Of a stretch of DNA of 38,200 bases, positions 26,338-37,313 are shown piece after piece. The stretch comes from a virus (taxonomy: Duplodnaviria > Heunggongvirae > Uroviricota > Caudoviricetes), in IMG/VR virus record IMGVR_UViG_2703719355_000022, positions 1 through 38,200 of that record. One strand, 5' to 3'. The notes under the pieces are model-generated. The model worked only from the letters and a program-made list of their open reading frames with translations, made no database searches and was not told the DNA's origin. A program made the translations under genes and the position numbers. Position 1 is the first letter of the stretch. Every line of letters begins with the position of its first letter.

Positions 26338-28266
26338 TTAAAAGTTATTTACCCACCCACCACGACGCACAGGACGCGCCATAGGACGACGATTAGGTTT
26401 GTGATGAGTGATTGGCTTAGTTTCTTCGATTTGCTCGTTAGAATGTGATTTAGGAGCTTCTACGGTTGCTTCTGGTTCACGATTCAGCTTTTCTTTCATT
26501 GCAATGAGCTTATCCCATGACATTTTTGAAAGAACATAGCGAGAAGCCGCATAGCTATAAACCAGACAGTCGAGCGCCTCGTTTCGTGTCGCACCTGGAT
26601 TTTTTACCCAACGTGTTCCAGTAACAGTACGCTTGATGGATTCACTCAAAAGCTGATCGAGATAATCATCAGGAACGGTTTCTGATATCTCTAAACCAAT
26701 ATGAGGGTTTTCTTTCAAGTTGCGTGTTAATAGCTCACGAATAGCCGTTTTACCCACGTTAACGCCCAACATAAGCAACTCATGACCGCCCGTGGTAGTT
26801 GGTTTCACTGGAATGATTGGAGCAGTACCAGATGAACTACCTTTGATTGCGTGTAAGTTCTTCCACTTACCACCGCAAATACGGTATCCGGCTTGAGTGA
26901 ATCGACCGTTCGATGTATCAAGGAAGCTGGCGAGCATAGGAACACGATCACCCGATACAGTAGTAAATTTGGTTTTATGGAAGTTGATTAATCTGTCCCA
27001 TACAGGAGATTCATATCGTTCACAGTTATGGTCGTAAAAGCTGCGATGATCCAGAATATAAATCTTATCCTTTGCCACGCCCATGATCGTAGTTTCTGCG
27101 CGATCTAATTGCTGGTCAGTACCCGCACACAAGAAAATCACGTCATCAGGGATATTCTCGATAGAAACATCTGTTTTAAGTTCTTCCAGTTCGTTTACTT
27201 CTACTGCCGTTTCCTGATCATCGTATACAGTGCCGAGAACGGTATTATAAAAACTTTGTAAATCAAATGTTTGCCACGCTTGAGAGAAGTCAGAGACACA
27301 TGCTTTGATAGAGCTAAAAGGTGAATATAGACGGCTGATCCAGAATCCTGCTACATCACTTTCACGGGTAGCTCTCCATTCACCTTGTGCAACCGCTCTA
27401 ATGCGATCCCCTTCTGACCAATCAGTCTGGCAATGAGGACACACATAACGGGCGCTTTCAACACATGGCAGATTGCGACCATCCTGATTTTTCCACTCGA
27501 ACTTAACATTTTCCCACTCGATCACCTGGTGTTTCCCGCAATGCGGACAAGGAACAAAGAATTTACGCTGATCACTTGATAACCATTGTTGATTAATCGG
27601 TCCCAGCTTAGTGGTCGGGGTACTGGAAACGATAATTCTTGCTTCATCCCCGAAAGTGGTTGCGCGGTTAGCCGCAAGTGCAATCGGATCGCCCTCTTCA
27701 CTAGCACTGGCAGCATCACATTCATCGAGCAGAATCAACGGGCTGGTTTTTGAACGCAAGGTTGATGGGCTAGTAAGCGATACCATGTAAAGAAAATGAT
27801 TAGTCTTAAGCTGAATCTGACTATTGTTATTAACAGCGTTGCGATCATTCTTGTCGGTGATTGCTTCGCGTAATGCCGGACATGCTTCAATGGCTGGTCG
27901 GATCTTCCCGCTTAGGTACTGAGCGGTTTCCTTCGTGGTTGCTTGGCCTATGATGATATTGCTGGGATCGTTAGCTATCTTATTGAATAATATACCATTA
28001 AGGATGGAAGTTTTGCCGATCTGGGCACTTGTACAAAAAATGTACTTTTTCTTATTCTCTAAGAAAGGAGCATCAATCATGCCTTTCTGAAAGCTGGTTA
28101 ATTTAATTTTAGCGCCAGCTTGTGGTCCATCCACTAGGATCATGTTTTCCTCGCACCATTCAGATGGTAAACGCTTAATTGGCGGTCGGATATGTTTTGA
28201 TACTTCGTTAAAAATTCGCTTGAGTTTAAATTTATTTGAGAGTTTTTTCACCGTGATTATCCTCAT
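26338..28266 (-). CDS. terminase large subunit, lambda gpA family, 642 aa
   Basis: Motifs [29 protein letters not shown] and C-terminal RNEALDC recall lambda gpA; Walker A-like GKTS; first gene of the minus-strand operon. Confidence 0.9.
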
Positions 28267-28321: not shown

Positions 28322-28924
28322 ATGCTAATTAATCAGCAACAAAGAGATGAATTAGAATTAGCCTTGTCTTGTACCGATCATGAATATCGTTTGCCAGTAA
28401 AACATAAGCACTTAAAGACTGATTACACAACATCCGGTTTTAGCCGTGAGGAAGCGAAAGAGATTTTAATAGAATTTTACCGTGATAATGGTTATACAGA
28501 CGTTCACAACTTCTTTAAGAAGCATAGAACATCACATACAGAGTTTCGGAGAGTCCGAGATTGGTTTGATTTTGATATCAAGCGTTATTATCGCATTGAT
28601 GACGGTCCTATCTATCGGTTGCAGTGGAAGCCGATCCGAGAAGTGTTGAAACAGAAGAGATTGAATCACGCAATTACACGCTATCGTAACGTGGCTTTCA
28701 AGAAAGGCTATGGTGATACAAGGGAACTATTCGTTGAACTAGCTAACGTGAAATATAGCCACTATTACAACGATCCTACAGGGTTCTTCGAAGTGCTTCG
28801 CAAGGTTGATATTAGTCGGGGTACATATTATTCACGGCTGAGGAAGTACGGGATTAAGGCAGAGTTCTTTATGTCGGTTGACGACTCACCCATGTTCAAG
28901 ATAAAATCTAAGTCCTCTAAATAA
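28322..28924 (+). CDS. hypothetical basic protein with two helix-turn-helix-like repeats, 200 aa
   Basis: AAGGGGG ribosome-binding motif; two internally similar segments (EILIEFYRDNGY...FRRVRDWF and ELFVELANVKY...YSRLRKYG); Arg/Lys/Tyr-rich. Confidence 0.4.
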   Translation: MLINQQQRDELELALSCTDHEYRLPVKHKHLKTDYTTSGFSREEAKEILIEFYRDNGYTDVHNFFKKHRTSHTEFRRVRDWFDFDIKRYYRIDDGPIYRLQWKPIREVLKQKRLNHAITRYRNVAFKKGYGDTRELFVELANVKYSHYYNDPTGFFEVLRKVDISRGTYYSRLRKYGIKAEFFMSVDDSPMFKIKSKSSK

Positions 28925-28959
28925 TATTGAGAAATCACTATTGTTTGGAGGAAACTACT

Positions 28960-29187
28960 ATGACTACTAAAGCTACTCGCGGTCGCCCTGCCCGTTTTAA
29001 CGCTGAACAGATGGCTGATATTGCCTACGCTTACTATACAGCGGATCGTGGTAAGGAAGCGAAAGAACAGATTCTTAGTGAACATGGGATCTCAATCGCC
29101 CAATTCTATAAGAATATGAAGAAGTTAGACATTAAATTCTATGTTCAGATCGGTGATGGTCAGATCGTAGAAGCAACAGGTTTTTGA
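28960..29187 (+). CDS. small DNA-binding protein with N-terminal GRP motif resembling small-terminase N-terminal domains, 75 aa
   Basis: GGAGG 7 nt upstream of ATG at 28960; N-terminus TRGRPARFNAEQMADI resembles the GRPxxYxPE start of some small-terminase DNA-binding domains; too short for a complete small terminase. Confidence 0.4.
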   Translation: MTTKATRGRPARFNAEQMADIAYAYYTADRGKEAKEQILSEHGISIAQFYKNMKKLDIKFYVQIGDGQIVEATGF

Positions 29188-30947: not shown

Positions 30948-31280
30948 TTACCAATCGATTTCTACTTGGTCTTCTTCATAATAAGGAATCGCATATTCAT
31001 AACGCCAGTTTTCGATGATTTCACGTTCTTCATTAGTAAGAAGGTGATTGCTAACTGGAGTCGCATTGTGATTACCAGCTTCGAATTGCTCGCGAACTTC
31101 CAGCATTGCATGAATACCAGTTAAAGACATCAGATCAAACGGAACATGCATACTACGGGAGATAGTTTCACGGGATACGCCCCAATCATTTTCTACATGG
31201 CTAGGGGTTACAGAAACGGTTTTGCCGGATATTTTAACAGTCCAGTCATACAGGGATTTAGTGATGGTAAATTCTTTCAT
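30948..31280 (-). CDS. hypothetical protein, 110 aa
   Basis: AGAGGA ribosome-binding motif; first gene after a strong promoter; no recognised domain. Confidence 0.45.
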   Translation of the reverse strand: MKEFTITKSLYDWTVKISGKTVSVTPSHVENDWGVSRETISRSMHVPFDLMSLTGIHAMLEVREQFEAGNHNATPVSNHLLTNEEREIIENWRYEYAIPYYEEDQVEIDW

Positions 31281-31336
31281 GTTACATCCTCTTTACAAAT
31301 CTAGGTCAAATAGGTTCAAAGTTGTCAAGTGCGATA

Positions 31337-31365
31337 ATCATAAAAAAGTCAGAAAATTTTGTCAA
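31337..31365 (-). promoter_or_regulatory. sigma70-type promoter (TTGACA-17-TATGAT) for the operon 31280 down to 29296
   Basis: -35 at 31360-31365 and -10 at 31337-31342 on minus strand; overlapped by TTGTCAA-N6-TTGACAA palindrome at 31359-31378. Confidence 0.5.
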
Positions 31366-31400
31366 TACCCCTTGACAAGACGCCAAAGGGTTGACCTAAC

Positions 31401-31868
31401 TTACAGCATGTCTAAGCCTTCATCGTAGCCGTAGAAGCCATTCTGAGAAGAGAAACAGATTGGCGCGTAGTCGTCGTCATCTTCGTCTTGTTCATCTTCT
31501 TCTGGGGCTTCCTGAGCGGTTTCTTTGCCGTAGTTAAACATTGCTTCATCCAGTTCATAGACAGTAACGAAGCTCCCCAGGTCAATGTCACCGGAACGGA
31601 CTTCAAACGGAAGATCATCACGAACAATAATTGCTGGTAGATTCTGGTACTTTAAGCGTTCTTCATCGGTGAAGACGTTAACAACAATGGTCGGCTTCTT
31701 ATTACGGCAAAACGCATACCATGCACTAGAGAAATGGGATTCATCAGAGTTGAAAAGGATGTTATAACCACGTTCACGGAACATCTTCATTAACTTGTCA
31801 TTGTGAAAGCTATCAGAATCCAGACCCAGAAGGATAAAAGGAGTAGTGGTAGTCATTTTATGGTTCAT
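31401..31868 (-). CDS. hypothetical acidic protein, 155 aa
   Basis: GAGGA ribosome-binding motif; C-terminal third very acidic (EEDEQDEDDDDY); no recognised domain. Confidence 0.45.
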   Translation of the reverse strand: MNHKMTTTTPFILLGLDSDSFHNDKLMKMFRERGYNILFNSDESHFSSAWYAFCRNKKPTIVVNVFTDEERLKYQNLPAIIVRDDLPFEVRSGDIDLGSFVTVYELDEAMFNYGKETAQEAPEEDEQDEDDDDYAPICFSSQNGFYGYDEGLDML

Positions 31869-32153
31869 AGTGGAAATCCTCTAAAAGAAAGTGAATCAAT
31901 CTAATATTATTTATAAAGAGAAAATTCTTGTTATTATGGAAAGAGTGGTCTGGTAGAGTCCAAAACTGGTCTGTACTTGAAAGGTGATTGGATTCAGTCG
32001 GGCTAGCCCTCCTTCATAGATTTGATTAAATCATCACCAAAACGAAGAAGTATCTTTATAATATAAGAATCTTTCTTTTGTAGAAATAATAATCGAACAA
32101 GATGGACGCTCCCTGAGCGTCTGCGAAGCATATCTAATTCCTTCCAGTATCAT

Positions 32154-32242
32154 CAAAGTGATCTAGAATCAGTTTGTTTTAAAGTGATTGTAATACCTTT
32201 ATCTTGGAAGTGATTTAACTACCATCTTCAAAGTGATCTTGA
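32154..32242 (+). repeat. four direct copies of AAGTGAT(Y)T spaced 24-26 bp
   Basis: GTGAT cores at 32158, 32184, 32209, 32233; outer copies are the near-identical 19-mers TCAAAGTGATCT(A/T)GAATCA. Confidence 0.6.
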
Positions 32243-32316
32243 ATCATCATGTTAAAATCCCTTCCTGAATGATTCGAAGCAGATTACTCGCGCCCCGCAG
32301 GGCGCATAATATCTTT

Positions 32317-32354
32317 GTAGGTATATTGGTTTGATGGTATGTAGGTATATTGGT
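32317..32354 (+). repeat. direct repeat GTAGGTATATTGGT x2 (24-bp period)
   Basis: Identical 14-mers at 32317-32330 and 32341-32354; preceded by palindrome GCGCCC-CGCA-GGGCGC at 32290-32305. Confidence 0.6.
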
Positions 32355-32408
32355 CTGTAGGTCTGGATCGCTTCTAAGCCCCGTCATTACTGGTTTCCCC
32401 ACTTTGAA

Positions 32409-32662
32409 ACGGGGACGGGAAAGAGACGGGGAAGGGATACCACGGGGACAGGTCGGGGATAACATGGGGATGATACGGGGACACCACGGGGAAAGCATTT
32501 AAAATCATATCCTTACATAAGAATACGCATCTAATACCGGGGATTTTACGCGGGGATGGCGGGGAAACTACCCTAATCCGGGGGATTTTGCTTCCAAAAC
32601 GGGGATGAACGCGGGGACGGTGACGGGGATACATCTTCTAAAGTGGGGATATCGCGGGGAAA
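32409..32662 (+). repeat. G-rich array of at least 16 same-orientation CGGGGA motifs, first seven largely phased at 11 bp
   Basis: GGGGA starts at 32411, 32428, 32444, 32455, 32466, 32477, 32488, 32539, 32552, 32561, 32581, 32601, 32613, 32625, 32645, 32656; flanked downstream by an AT-rich stretch. Confidence 0.8.
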
Positions 32663-32865
32663 CCTTTAAATTCATTCAAATATTTTGATAGAAAATTCTT
32701 GTATATTATTTAACCAAAAAATCATCAAAAATCGCTGTAACTTAATGATTTAAAAGGGATTATCAAAAGGTCGCCGTGCTATAATAGGTTATAAAGGTTG
32801 ATAATCATTATTCGCCATTTTCACACAAAAATTTTGATAGCCTTTTCTCGCTTGGGTCAAGTGTG

Positions 32866-32894
32866 TTGACTTCTGTCAAGGATTATTTTATACT
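32866..32894 (+). promoter_or_regulatory. sigma70-type promoter (TTGACT-17-TATACT) reading into the plus-strand early genes
   Basis: -35 at 32866-32871, -10 at 32889-32894; flanked by GTCAA/TTGAC half-sites at 32856-32879. Confidence 0.55.
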
Positions 32895-33029
32895 TTTTCT
32901 CGTTGGTAGGGGTTGAAATTTTCAAAACAGTCCCCATATAGATGATAAGCAAGATTTTCTCTCTACTAAATACATGTGAGAAATGATTGTTCACTTCTGA
33001 AAATCTCCTGATTCACTGTTAATTAATAC

Positions 33030-33058
33030 AGCACTGGTTAGATATACAGTGCTTTTTT
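33030..33058 (+). terminator. hairpin plus T-run (AGCACTG-N10-CAGTGCT-TTTTTT); terminator or attenuator
   Basis: 7-bp stem followed by six T; a similar hairpin CCACTG-N11-CAGTGG-TTTT at 33117-33145. Confidence 0.5.
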
Positions 33059-33236
33059 GGTTGAATAATGTACGAATTGATTAATTATTAATCTTCTCTT
33101 TAGCAATTCGTGCTCCCACTGATCGGATATACAGTGGTTTTACAGGGTTTTCTGAAATGACTTTTATAAATAGAAGTATCAAGGGCGAAAAGCTCTTTTT
33201 ATGAGAAAAAATAATCCACATTGTAGAGGATGTAAC

Positions 33237-33419
33237 ATGGCCAGAACTGTTAAATTTACTCGCGAGATTATGTTAGAGAAAGCAAAACGCTACTTTGAAC
33301 TGACGCCGGGAGTGAGGATTGAAGAGTGGTTTAAAAATGAAGGCATCGATAAATCAACCTTCCATAAACTCTTAAAGAAATATGAAATCAAGGTGAAGAT
33401 TGAAGCTACCGTTTGGTAA
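33237..33419 (+). CDS. hypothetical small protein, 60 aa
   Basis: ATG at 33237 with GAGGA upstream (track start 33201 has no ribosome-binding motif); basic helical protein. Confidence 0.4.
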   Translation: MARTVKFTREIMLEKAKRYFELTPGVRIEEWFKNEGIDKSTFHKLLKKYEIKVKIEATVW

Positions 33420-33518
33420 TCAACTTTGACTGAGAATTAAATTATGAAACTTTTAACCAATAAAAAAGCCCCCTTGCGGCAACAAGGAGGCTTCTACTTA
33501 ACATAAGGAATTACTACA

Positions 33519-34532
33519 ATGAAACAAAATAACTTCTCTATTACCGTTTACAGCAACACCGCAGACACCGCAAAATATCAGTACGATGCAGATATCGAAA
33601 TTCGTAACTATGGCAGCAACGAAGCCGACGAATTAACTATTGGCACTAATATTTATAAAGAAGAATCTATCGATTCTCTGTACACCACTCTCTATCATGC
33701 TGGTTCCGACTGGAAAAAAGAATACCGTGGTTTAGAGCGTAAGAAAGCTACTTTGAAAGCAATGGTTAAACCAGACCAGCGCGAAGTATATGCTATCGCT
33801 TACAAGAACGGCGACGAATCCTATGTAGTGTCTATCCTGCAAGATGAAGCTGGTAGCCTCTGGGGTAACATGATCCACGCTTCCCGCCGCGATGCTAAAG
33901 GCCGTTTCGTTAATGGTAAAGTTAAAAACTTTGCTCTGGCTTCTAGTGTTGTTGGTGCATGGTCTGATTGTGCTCACGGTGAGAAATTCAATATTTCTTT
34001 CTTCGTTTCCAACAAAGCTAAACTGAATGTTAACGCTGTTGATAAGGCAGTATGGAAAGAAACCACTAAAGAAAAAACCGTTTCCAACTACGAAGAAGAA
34101 TTACAGCAGCGTGATATTCAGATTCTGTCTGATGCGCATCGTGCTTTTGAGCAACGTCTTGCTGAGATGGAACGCAAATTCGCTATGCTGATGGAAGAAA
34201 ACATTAGTCTGAAAAAAGAAATTGAAGTTCTTGAAATCCGTGTAGAAGAACTGGAAGCAAAAGAAGTTAAAGCGCCGGAAGTTAAAGAAGTTGAAGCGGT
34301 AGCAGTAGTTCCGGCAGCTACCCAGGAAGAAGCGAAAGAAGAAAAAGAAGCACCGGAGGCGGTTACTGTTGATCAGCCGATTATCAAACCAGCGTTAACC
34401 GTAGTTTCTTGTGATATTTCTGATGCCAGCTTAAACAACCTTCTTGATGTAGAAGAAGGATATAAACCATATGTTCCAACCATTCCGGCTATGGATGAGA
34501 TGGACCGCGAATTACTTGATTTTGCAGCTTAA
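33519..34532 (+). CDS. hypothetical protein with central coiled coil and acidic C-terminal tail, 337 aa
   Basis: AAGGAA ribosome-binding motif; heptad-like region around residues 190-250; C-terminus MDEMDRELLDFAA; function unknown. Confidence 0.5.
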   Translation: MKQNNFSITVYSNTADTAKYQYDADIEIRNYGSNEADELTIGTNIYKEESIDSLYTTLYHAGSDWKKEYRGLERKKATLKAMVKPDQREVYAIAYKNGDESYVVSILQDEAGSLWGNMIHASRRDAKGRFVNGKVKNFALASSVVGAWSDCAHGEKFNISFFVSNKAKLNVNAVDKAVWKETTKEKTVSNYEEELQQRDIQILSDAHRAFEQRLAEMERKFAMLMEENISLKKEIEVLEIRVEELEAKEVKAPEVKEVEAVAVVPAATQEEAKEEKEAPEAVTVDQPIIKPALTVVSCDISDASLNNLLDVEEGYKPYVPTIPAMDEMDRELLDFAA

Positions 34533-36278: not shown

Positions 36279-36836
36279 TTACGACACATCAAATTCATCG
36301 TCTTCTTGTTCTTCTTCCGGTTCTTCCTGCTTCACTTCCTCATCTTCTGAGTATTCATCGTAGGCATCAAGATCCGGTGAAATCATAATATCCCCGATCT
36401 CATTCAAACGAGCGGAAATGATATCCTTCAATGTTTCTTTCAAAGTACGCTGATCCGTTGCAGCTTCCATAATTTTTAGAGTGTCTACCGTCGCCATCTG
36501 CATCATGGTCTGGCGTACATCACCACAAAATCCGGCTAGAACTGTTTCTACATAACCTACAGGAATCAGATCATTTAGTTCGGTGCGGTTCTTAAGTTCG
36601 ATGGCGTCCGCCTCCCCTCTCGCCTTTCTTAATCGTTCTTGTTGGATCTGCGCTTGTACATCAACTTCCCTAAGTGGGCTGATTATGTTTTCAATTACCC
36701 AGGTGATTGCTCTATCCCGTGGACAACGGCGGGTATTCGTATTATACGGAAGACCACGATCACGCCATTTCTGAACAGCCGGAAGGGAATACCCATACAT
36801 TTTAGATAATTCGGTTAAAGTTACTTCTTGCGTCAT
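36279..36836 (-). CDS. terminase small subunit, lambda Nu1-like, 185 aa
   Basis: N-terminal TLTELSKMYGYSLPAVQKWRDRGLPY and central ARGEADAIELKNR...YVETVLAGFCGDV match my recollection of lambda Nu1; ATG at 36836 with AGAGGA upstream; acidic C-terminus. Confidence 0.7.
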   Translation of the reverse strand: MTQEVTLTELSKMYGYSLPAVQKWRDRGLPYNTNTRRCPRDRAITWVIENIISPLREVDVQAQIQQERLRKARGEADAIELKNRTELNDLIPVGYVETVLAGFCGDVRQTMMQMATVDTLKIMEAATDQRTLKETLKDIISARLNEIGDIMISPDLDAYDEYSEDEEVKQEEPEEEQEDDEFDVS

Positions 36837-37169
36837 GAAACTATCCTCTGAGCTAAAAATATGCGTAATTGTATTTAGACGAAATACGCAATATAACGGC
36901 CTATAACGCAATTTAAGAAAATCCCATGTGACGGGGCGTTGAGAAGTGATTTAGCTCGTTGTAGGGCTTGTTTGGTGGCTTAACTAAACCAATTTGAAAA
37001 AGGCACAAGCGAGATTTAAACCGCGCCGGGCAAAACACGCCCTCTTTTACCACTTATCACAGCACCTTTCTGTTGTCAAGTCTTTTTTATCGAATATTTT
37101 AAATTTTTTCATCTTTTTTCTCGTGCATTCATCCGTTTTTTTCTCGGTCAAAATCAATGACTTGACCCG

Positions 37170-37197
37170 TTGACACTGATCCGGTCATCAATATAAT
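37170..37197 (+). promoter_or_regulatory. consensus sigma70 promoter (TTGACA-16-TATAAT) upstream of the lipoprotein gene
   Basis: -35 at 37170-37175, -10 at 37192-37197; GGAGG ribosome-binding motif before ATG at 37314. Confidence 0.6.
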
Positions 37198-37313
37198 CGG
37201 TCACACTTTGACCATGTAAGGTGTGTTTCAGATGTGAGGATTAACGATAGATATTTACATAAATAAAGATGTGGTTAATCCATTCATCAATTTAATTCTC
37301 TGGAGGATATTCT

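Follow-up and report, generated by a model that had tools for sequence, protein, structure and literature searches.

Promoters and hexamer repeats of the early control region

The DNA analysed here, positions 1 to 38,200 of IMG/VR virus record IMGVR_UViG_2703719355_000022 (hereafter the window, ~38 kb), is an essentially complete prophage, and this analysis concerns a set of TTGAC(A/C) hexamers located at three of its predicted sigma-70 promoters. Two of these, P(-) and P(+), are on opposite strands and head the early operons, and the third, P3, precedes the gene for a 190-aa lipoprotein-like cargo protein at the prophage end. An earlier annotation of this DNA, made from its letters alone (the original prediction), had proposed that hexamer palindromes overlapping P(-) and P(+) form a shared operator, through which one regulator controls both operons. 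The promoters and hexamers are listed below, with positions relative to inferred start sites placed 7 nt past the -10.

31337..31365, minus strand: P(-), sigma-70 promoter, TTGACA (31365..31360)-N17-TATGAT (31342..31337), 11/12 match to the consensus
31372..31377: inverted copy of the -35 upstream of P(-), at -47..-42, TGTCAA in promoter orientation (TTGACA on the plus strand)
31391..31396: distal inverted copy, at -66..-61, GGTCAA in promoter orientation (TTGACC on the plus strand)
31323..31328, minus strand: direct copy TTGACA, at +3..+8 of P(-)
31304..31309, minus strand: direct copy TTGACC, at +22..+27 of P(-)
32866..32894, plus strand: P(+), sigma-70 promoter, TTGACT (32866-32871)-N17-TATACT (32889-32894), 10/12 match
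32874..32879: inverted copy TGTCAA inside the P(+) spacer, at -27..-22, forming TTGAC-N4-GTCAA with the -35
32855..32860: GGTCAA upstream of P(+), not conserved
37146..37213, plus strand: P3, near-consensus sigma-70 promoter, GGTCAA (37146)-N10-TTGACC (37162)-cg-TTGACA (-35, 37170)-N16-TATAAT (37192)

All three promoters are predicted from sequence, with hexamers 16-18 bp apart upstream of an operon. In a scan of the 8 kb between 28000 and 36000, P(-) ranked first and P(+) joint second among consensus sigma-70 matches, and both are real consensus matches, as had been proposed. Transcription from P(-) would start at ~31330 and read p110, a Rha/Ant-like gene and p214, and that from P(+) would start at ~32901 and pass through a ~336-nt leader before reaching p60, p337 and p333. 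The description of the two as divergent is correct for the strands but applies only loosely, as they are 1.5 kb apart with the p155 gene and ~1 kb of repeat-rich non-coding DNA between them. The hexamers quoted in the original prediction were all found in place, as read on the plus strand (TGTCAA at 31323-31328 and 31360-31365, TTGACA at 31372-31377, GGTCAA at 32855-32860, TTGACT at 32866-32871 and TGTCAA at 32874-32879). It had listed three of the five copies at P(-) but missed GGTCAA at 31304 and TTGACC at 31391, and it overlooked P3, a third promoter with the same motif family.

At P(-), the -35 and the copy at 31372-31377 together form the perfect palindrome TTGTCAA-N6-TTGACAA (31359-31378) that had been noted previously. 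P(+) is the best non-coding match in the window to TTGACAnnTGTCAA, with one mismatch, and the +3 site of P(-) is the second best, with two mismatches and a right half that is not conserved. P3 carries further copies, GGTCAT in its spacer and a palindrome, GGTCAC-N3-TTGACC (37199-37213), spanning the start site. Across the promoters the extra copies are therefore upstream of the -35 in inverted orientation, in the spacer, or at the transcription start. None has a usable -10 at 16-19 nt (by inspection, and none is listed by the consensus scan), and divergent or antisense promoters using the inverted hexamers as their -35 were rejected for this reason.

The motif is not enriched over the window as a whole, as TTGACAA occurs seven times with 8.5 expected and TTGAC(A/C) 42 times with 43.5 in simulations. 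A single palindrome with ≤2 mismatches is also unsurprising, since 27 of 100 shuffles yield one. The clustering of the copies is non-random: five TTGAC(A/C) are present within 93 bp at P(-) (31304-31396) and four within 68 bp at P3 (37146-37213), where at least five in 100 bp were seen in 0.2% of 500 Markov simulations and at least four in 0.6%.

Conservation of the hexamers in related prophages

Of 5426 complete E. coli genomes, 58 (~1%) carry the prophage in their chromosome, among them O55:H7, Shiga toxin-producing (STEC) and enterotoxigenic (ETEC) strains, and the family also occurs in Salmonella and Proteus. Comparison sequences were taken from IMG/VR contigs and E. coli genomes, plus the Salmonella and Proteus relatives, and the loci were labelled L001-L032. 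For P(-) these comprised 26 sequences, 23 of them distinct; p155, which flanks the region, has a DNA identity of ~75% in most of these relatives (protein identity 55-97%). Both promoter hexamers of P(-) are unchanged in 25 of the 26, and substitutions affect one of 30 hexamer columns versus 38 of 90 other intergenic columns (Fisher one-sided p=2e-5), which supports purifying selection on the extra hexamers beyond promoter function. The single variable hexamer column is the -35 change to TTGGCA in L024. This copy, from E. coli C325, is the only relative so mutated at P(-); the change alters the -35 and breaks the palindrome, and the copy may be naturally attenuated or decaying.

The arms of the P(-) palindrome are invariant, and its spacer reads GGGGTA, GGTGTG, GGGGTG or GGTATA and is 6-7 nt long. 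The distal inverted copy, which doubles as the 5' arm of a hairpin, is invariant in E. coli and missing in Salmonella. The TTGACA at +3..+8 is invariant in E. coli and present in Salmonella L026 and L029/30, and the TTGACC at +22..+27 is invariant in E. coli and L026 and missing in L029/30. The Salmonella loci are arranged as AGTCAA-N6-TTGACA(-35)...TTGACA...TTGACC in L026 and TGTCAA-N7-TTGACA(-35)...TTGACA in L029/30, and L027/28 have direct repeats instead, TTGACA(-35)-N7-TTGACC. The region is intact even where an open reading frame (ORF) of 48-50 aa replaces p110 as the first downstream gene, and the Proteus relative lacks the whole P(-)/Rha operon.

The P(+) alignment contained 16 sequences, with one contig entered as both L004 and L019. 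The perfect 14-bp palindrome TTGACA-NN-TGTCAA is present in each of the 15 relatives of this type, with a -35 of TTGACA where the window has TTGACT. The spacer TGTCAA is invariant in 16/16 (NN is TC, AC, TG or AG), and what varies are the flanks, the 3' part of the spacer (GGATT or GAACT) and the -10 (TATACT, TATGCT or TATCCT). Conservation of a spacer hexamer above that of the -10 appears hard to explain by polymerase alone, and TTGACAnnTGTCAA is not an RNA hairpin because a 6+2+6 palindrome leaves a loop of 2 nt. The inverted repeat is kept in three Salmonella lineages whose flanks cannot be aligned, as TTGACAagAGTCAA in two and TTGACCatcTGTCAA in the third, with a core spacing of N5 instead of N4 in L027/28. 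The upstream site reads GGTCAA, GATCAA, GGTCAT or GATCAT; its GTCAA is kept in 8/16 and missing in Salmonella. The half-sites of the original prediction are thus conserved in relatives at P(-) and in the P(+) spacer, but the upstream GTCAA of its compound element GTCAA-N5-TTGAC-N4-GTCAA is not. At both promoters conservation exceeds what promoter function needs and falls within the polymerase footprint, as is expected of operators.

The window-type P(+) module is present in 31 of the 58 E. coli genomes and absent from the other 27. The P3 elements are kept in STEC1575 at 74% overall identity, with partial versions in Salmonella and Proteus, and the exact P3 module is found in only 2/5426 E. 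coli genomes. The right arm of the prophage is mosaic, and TerS-based retrieval of P3 relatives from viral contigs yielded one locus.

Possible roles of the hexamers and candidate regulators

The analysis shows the motifs, where they lie, that they cluster and that they are selectively conserved; from this we infer that a protein binds here, that its effect would be repressive, and which protein it may be. The extra hexamers are very probably protein-binding elements, and we give about an even chance to the proposal that those at P(-), P(+) and P3 serve a sequence-specific DNA-binding regulator which excludes polymerase in the lysogen. Their positions at the -35 and in the spacer, at +3..+8 and across the P3 start are of the repressor type; by occupying the start as well as the -35 and its vicinity, a regulator would shut out RNA polymerase and hold these strong promoters silent in the lysogen. 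Should the hexamers prove to be operators, the regulon and the genetic switch of this so far unstudied family of temperate phages would be defined by them.

The arrangement of the copies bears on what kind of protein this could be. P(-) has TGTCAA-N6/7-TTGACA, with the copy upstream of the -35 and pointing away from it; P(+) has TTGACA-N2/3-TGTCAA, with the copy downstream and pointing toward it; and P3 has GGTCA-N5-TGACC and GGTCAA-N10-TTGACC. As neither orientation nor spacing is fixed (N2, N3, N6, N7, direct or inverted), a rigid symmetric dimer is unlikely, and a single symmetric operator common to both promoters was rejected on geometry. On the alignments, the conserved unit is the single hexamer, and a protein reading it via flexibly linked or separately oligomerising domains would fit better.

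No CI-type (HTH_3 + S24 peptidase) or Cro-type protein was found in the ORFs scanned with Pfam, PHROGs and NCBIfam, and RefSeq annotates none in the closest prophage; an unrecognised regulator must therefore exist. Judged from sequence and structural models, the best candidates in the window are a family of three paralogous proteins:

33237..33419, plus strand: p60, basic, first gene of the P(+) operon, three helices predicted, candidate DNA binder
28322-28924, plus strand: p200, two tandem p60-like basic domains with a disordered linker of ~25 residues
28960-29187, plus strand: p75, p60 paralog

The relationship between p60 and p75 is seen with BLASTP (E=3e-6), and two more copies of this basic domain can be aligned in p200. 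The p200/p75 cassette (28322..29187) is transcribed against both neighbouring operons and is by position a candidate lysogeny regulator. The p60 and p200 families, the two that were searched, have homologs only in Escherichia, Salmonella and Proteus prophages; neither belongs to a Pfam family, and tblastn detected no member among deposited phages. AlphaFold2 models p60 as three helices with a predicted local distance difference test score (pLDDT) of 69, and p200 as a pair of units, each with three helices and a beta-hairpin (core pLDDT 85-93), on either side of the disordered linker; fold searches with both models gave no significant match. Helix 3 of p60 (STFHKLLKKY), the putative recognition helix, is invariant across all lineages. 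The Rha-like protein, which the original prediction had named as a possible regulator, is not supported as the binder: its identity ranges from 36 to 97% beside an invariant P(-), and it is missing in L027/28 and Proteus.

An identical 15-nt ribosome-binding site and start codon, AGAGGATGTAACATG, opens the first gene of both operons (31278-31292, minus strand; 33225-33239, plus strand), and this shared sequence shows the true start of p60 to be the ATG at 33237 and not 33201.

It can further be proposed that lysogeny is maintained without a CI-type repressor, with the p60/p75/p200 family, not described before, reading the -35 hexamer TTGAC(A/C) flexibly and competing head-on with sigma region 4 at all strong promoters of the prophage, P(-), P(+) and P3. 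We consider this specific version improbable. If true, such a -35-hexamer reader would be a simple, portable shut-off for consensus promoters, and it would give a function to a protein family which now has none.

Several observations weigh against a dedicated regulator of the hexamers. The geometry differs among the three promoters and among lineages, and the half-site is the -35 consensus, so that part of its conservation is plain promoter function. The entire P(-) intergenic region is unusually conserved, so hitch-hiking contributes, and the P(-) palindrome lies within a conserved hairpin. The inverted copy at P(+) is missing in 8/8 fetched E. coli relatives with the other P(+) module, which has CAGGGGCAAAA iterons, GTGTAGG repeats and two tandem consensus promoters, the second TTGACA abutting the first -10. 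The Proteus promoter is homologous, TTGACA-aa-AAGCAA-GGATTATTT-TAAAAT, and lacks the inverted half. Presence of the palindrome tracks none of p60, p75, p200, p155, p110, Rha or iteron type, and helix 3 of p60 is identical also where the P(+) palindrome is missing, so p60 cannot be tied to that site. Since the E. coli relatives that lack the P(+) copy keep P(-) intact, co-regulation is not fixed in the family and is lineage-specific. The proposed shared operator is supported in part: what remains of it is a set of extra hexamers conserved beyond promoter need, but they have no common geometry, and the P(+) copy is absent from other-module E. coli and from Proteus.

The hairpin at P(-) and the gene that precedes it are as follows.

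31346..31402, minus-strand transcript: conserved stem-loop, inner stem 31361-31395, beginning 6 nt past the p155 stop codon
31401..31868, minus strand: p155, acidic 155-aa protein encoded between P(-) and P(+), 32 D/E versus 13 K/R, poly-D/E tail

The P(-) palindrome could be mainly an RNA signal, in which the stem-loop past the stop codon of p155 acts as a terminator or attenuator against read-through into the Rha operon, a possibility that is compatible with protein binding and that we take seriously without favouring it. The hairpin pairs GGUCAACCCUUUGGC with GUCAAGGGGU..UUGAC, its 3' arm holding GTCAAGGGG plus the TTGAC of the P(-) -35, and has a minimum free energy of -23.9 kcal/mol (z=-3.8). 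In an alignment of 15 distinct sequences, pairing holds in 94.7% of cells and two pairs show compensatory change, and 3/500 shuffles reach the covariation score; the changes include one compensatory C-G to A-U in L002 and two that are wobble-compatible in L025. Salmonella L026 keeps the E. coli stem with a different loop, and L029/30 have a different C5/G5 stem in the same place with TGTCAA in its loop (C5-TGTCAA-G5). The outer helix ends with six U, but this helix is weak, the inner stem is followed by AAAAUUUU (A4U4) and not by a U-tract, and the terminator scan does not call the hairpin. Most pairs never vary, which leaves the covariation test with low power, and two pairs are broken in L011/12 and one in L014. 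As GTCAA is kept both where it is paired (E. coli) and where it is in the loop (L029/30), its sequence, more than its pairing, appears to matter, and an RNA signal at P(-) leaves P(+), P3 and the +3 and +22 copies unexplained. A terminator or attenuator function, judged from the predicted fold, probably overlaps P(-). For the P(+) operon, some control after initiation is likely, and it may outweigh the promoter repeats there; that the operon is controlled mainly in its ~336-nt leader, through a termination/antitermination mechanism or an RNA-binding or antisense factor, with the promoter repeats secondary, we find rather doubtful. The leader (32901-33236) contains three terminator-like hairpins: AGCACUG-N10-CAGUGCU-U6 (33030-33059), its second copy (33116-33141) and one directly before the ribosome-binding site. 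Relatives without the palindrome keep this leader. A 17-nt motif within it, CTTTAGCAATTCGTGCT (33098-33114), is exact in 23/30 loci, which span Salmonella and the two E. coli promoter types, and L026 has two copies of it; this region may be an antitermination or attenuation element. None of the leader hairpins, whose loops are 10 nt, is called by the terminator scan, the leader folds only modestly better than shuffles (z=-2.1), and an Rfam scan of 31200-33600 gave no RNA family match, only a sub-threshold hit to a counter-transcribed RNA. Leader control is also silent on P(-) and P3.

A dedicated regulator would be unnecessary if the hexamers were nothing more than -35 elements, or remnants of tandem promoters, in an intergenic module that spread recently and diverges slowly, with polymerase as sole ligand. 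The identity of half-site and -35, the lack of global TTGAC enrichment, the two genuine tandem promoters of the other E. coli type and the high conservation of the P(-) region even beside different downstream genes are all consistent with this. We nevertheless regard it as unlikely, as the extra copies have no usable -10, substitutions specifically avoid the hexamers, and the TGTCAA of the P(+) spacer varies less than the -10 and is found even where its surroundings can no longer be aligned; unregulated strong promoters before an anti-repressor-like gene would also fit poorly with stable lysogeny in 58 genomes. It seems less plausible still that a host factor, either a CRP/FNR-family dimer or a TetR-type protein with a RutR-like box, binds the P(+) element and couples early transcription to host physiology, and we rate this as very unlikely. 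FNR recognises TTGAT-N4-ATCAA with strict spacing, and activation is usually centred near -41.5 or further upstream; the PrfA box is TTAACAnnTGTTAA and the RutR-like box TTGACCAnnTGGTCAA. The 14-bp 6+2+6 palindrome at P(+) has the architecture of a PrfA box, and its TTGAC-N4-GTCAA core has the FNR spacing with 4/5 positions of each half-site; the element occurs in Escherichia and Salmonella and not in the Proteus relative, and no phage protein co-varies with it. Its centre at about -28.5 is, however, a repressing and not an activator position, one Salmonella lineage has N5 spacing, the half-sites at P(-) and P3 are arranged oppositely, in geometries unrelated to these boxes, and the RutR spacing (N6) is not matched. 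The prophage itself encodes no factor of the CRP/FNR/PrfA kind.

Regulation of the hexamers by a DNA-binding protein would be a familiar kind of promoter control. In the lambdoid CI/Cro system the OR and OL operators lie over PR, PRM and PL, and here too repeated operator-like elements are found on the -35, spacer and start of strong early promoters in the oppositely oriented operons of a temperate phage, with p60 (predicted three helices) first in one operon, as is Cro. The differences are that neither a CI-type nor a Cro-type protein is detectable in the prophage, that the lambdoid promoters are back to back whereas P(-) and P(+) are 1.5 kb apart with a gene between them, and that the lambdoid operators are 17-bp pseudo-palindromes at fixed spacing, compared with 6-bp units of variable orientation and spacing here, whose half-site is the -35. 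P2 Cox and 186 Apl are small early-operon proteins that act on arrays of short repeats as both repressor and excision factor. The prophage resembles these systems in having a small basic protein first in an early operon and multiple short repeats for which a symmetric operator is not required. Unlike in those systems, the repeats are not helically phased direct repeats and the integrase is a serine recombinase; the candidates have neither sequence nor significant fold similarity to Cox or Apl, and their function is a prediction. The finding adds a further example from a prophage family that has not been studied before. As a case of regulatory repeats overlapping promoters it is solid but ordinary, and its main use is as a starting point for experiments.

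Other features of the control region and prophage

The p155 protein matches no family and is conserved as far as Proteus (33%), with identities of 33-97% in relatives. It was rejected as a CI analogue by position, or as the binder, as it is strongly acidic with no predicted helix-turn-helix; it may be a DNA mimic or early anti-defence protein.

The DNA between the promoters includes ~400 bp with AAGTGATCT repeats, three TGTAGGT repeats at 32316-32362, and an array at 32411-32660 that holds 16 of the 25 GGGGA units found on its strand in the whole window. Much of the GGGGA array repeats with a phase of exactly 11 bp; ~40 bp of AT-rich DNA divide it into two blocks, and it is not part of the TTGAC motif family. 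Its unit changes as a module, being CGGGGA, CAGGGGCAAAA, or CTAGGGATG in Proteus, and the CGGGGA type co-occurs with p337/p333 homologs. From this arrangement the array is a probable replication origin or centromere-like site for a protein array. It shares with iteron origins and R1 parC-type centromeres its short repeats in the same orientation, 11-bp phase and two clusters, but no Rep, O-like, ParR or ParM homolog was recognised in the prophage.

The control region has another conserved motif family besides TTGAC(A/C), the TGTAGGT/GTGTAGG repeats. One copy occupies the first-promoter spacer of the tandem-promoter relatives (L001 etc.), at the place of TGTCAA in the window type, and copies flank P(+) in Salmonella L029/30. 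A Fur box-like sequence, TGATAATCATTAT (32799-32811), is located ~55 bp upstream of the P(+) -35 and is moderately conserved only. Three AAGTGAT(C/T)T repeats (32156-32239) are followed by a GC-rich hairpin, GCGCCCCGCAGGGCGC (~32292-32307), and together may represent a small RNA or a protein-binding array.

No close relative of the prophage was found by megablast among 50,697 deposited phages. The only blastn match was to T4-like phages, where 74 nt of non-coding DNA (32021-32094) have ~80% identity with intergenic DNA of T4-type phages of the RB49-like (Krischvirus) group; the flanking genes are unrelated. Plasmids gave no match to the prophage, a scan of GTDB species representatives with p110 gave none, and the literature searched yielded nothing relevant on a TTGACA/TGTCAA operator or on prophages inserted in hicB. 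The closest copy, in E. coli strain RMDEC332, interrupts hicB, which is the insertion site in most fetched E. coli copies; in STEC1575, Salmonella and Proteus it is ycdX. The element is thus a mosaic family with two attachment sites. Besides a serine integrase (1248-2942), the prophage encodes a helicase, an M15 endolysin and a minus-strand tail/head module, together with the two terminase genes:

26338-28266: TerL, gpA-type
36279-36836: TerS, Nu1-like

The Nu1-like TerS gene is 8 kb from TerL, across the early region. A palindrome, TGCGTA-N17-TACGCA (36862-36890), is located directly upstream of the TerS ribosome-binding site, and a lone TGTCAAGTCTTTTTT element upstream (37074-37088) is kept in most lineages.

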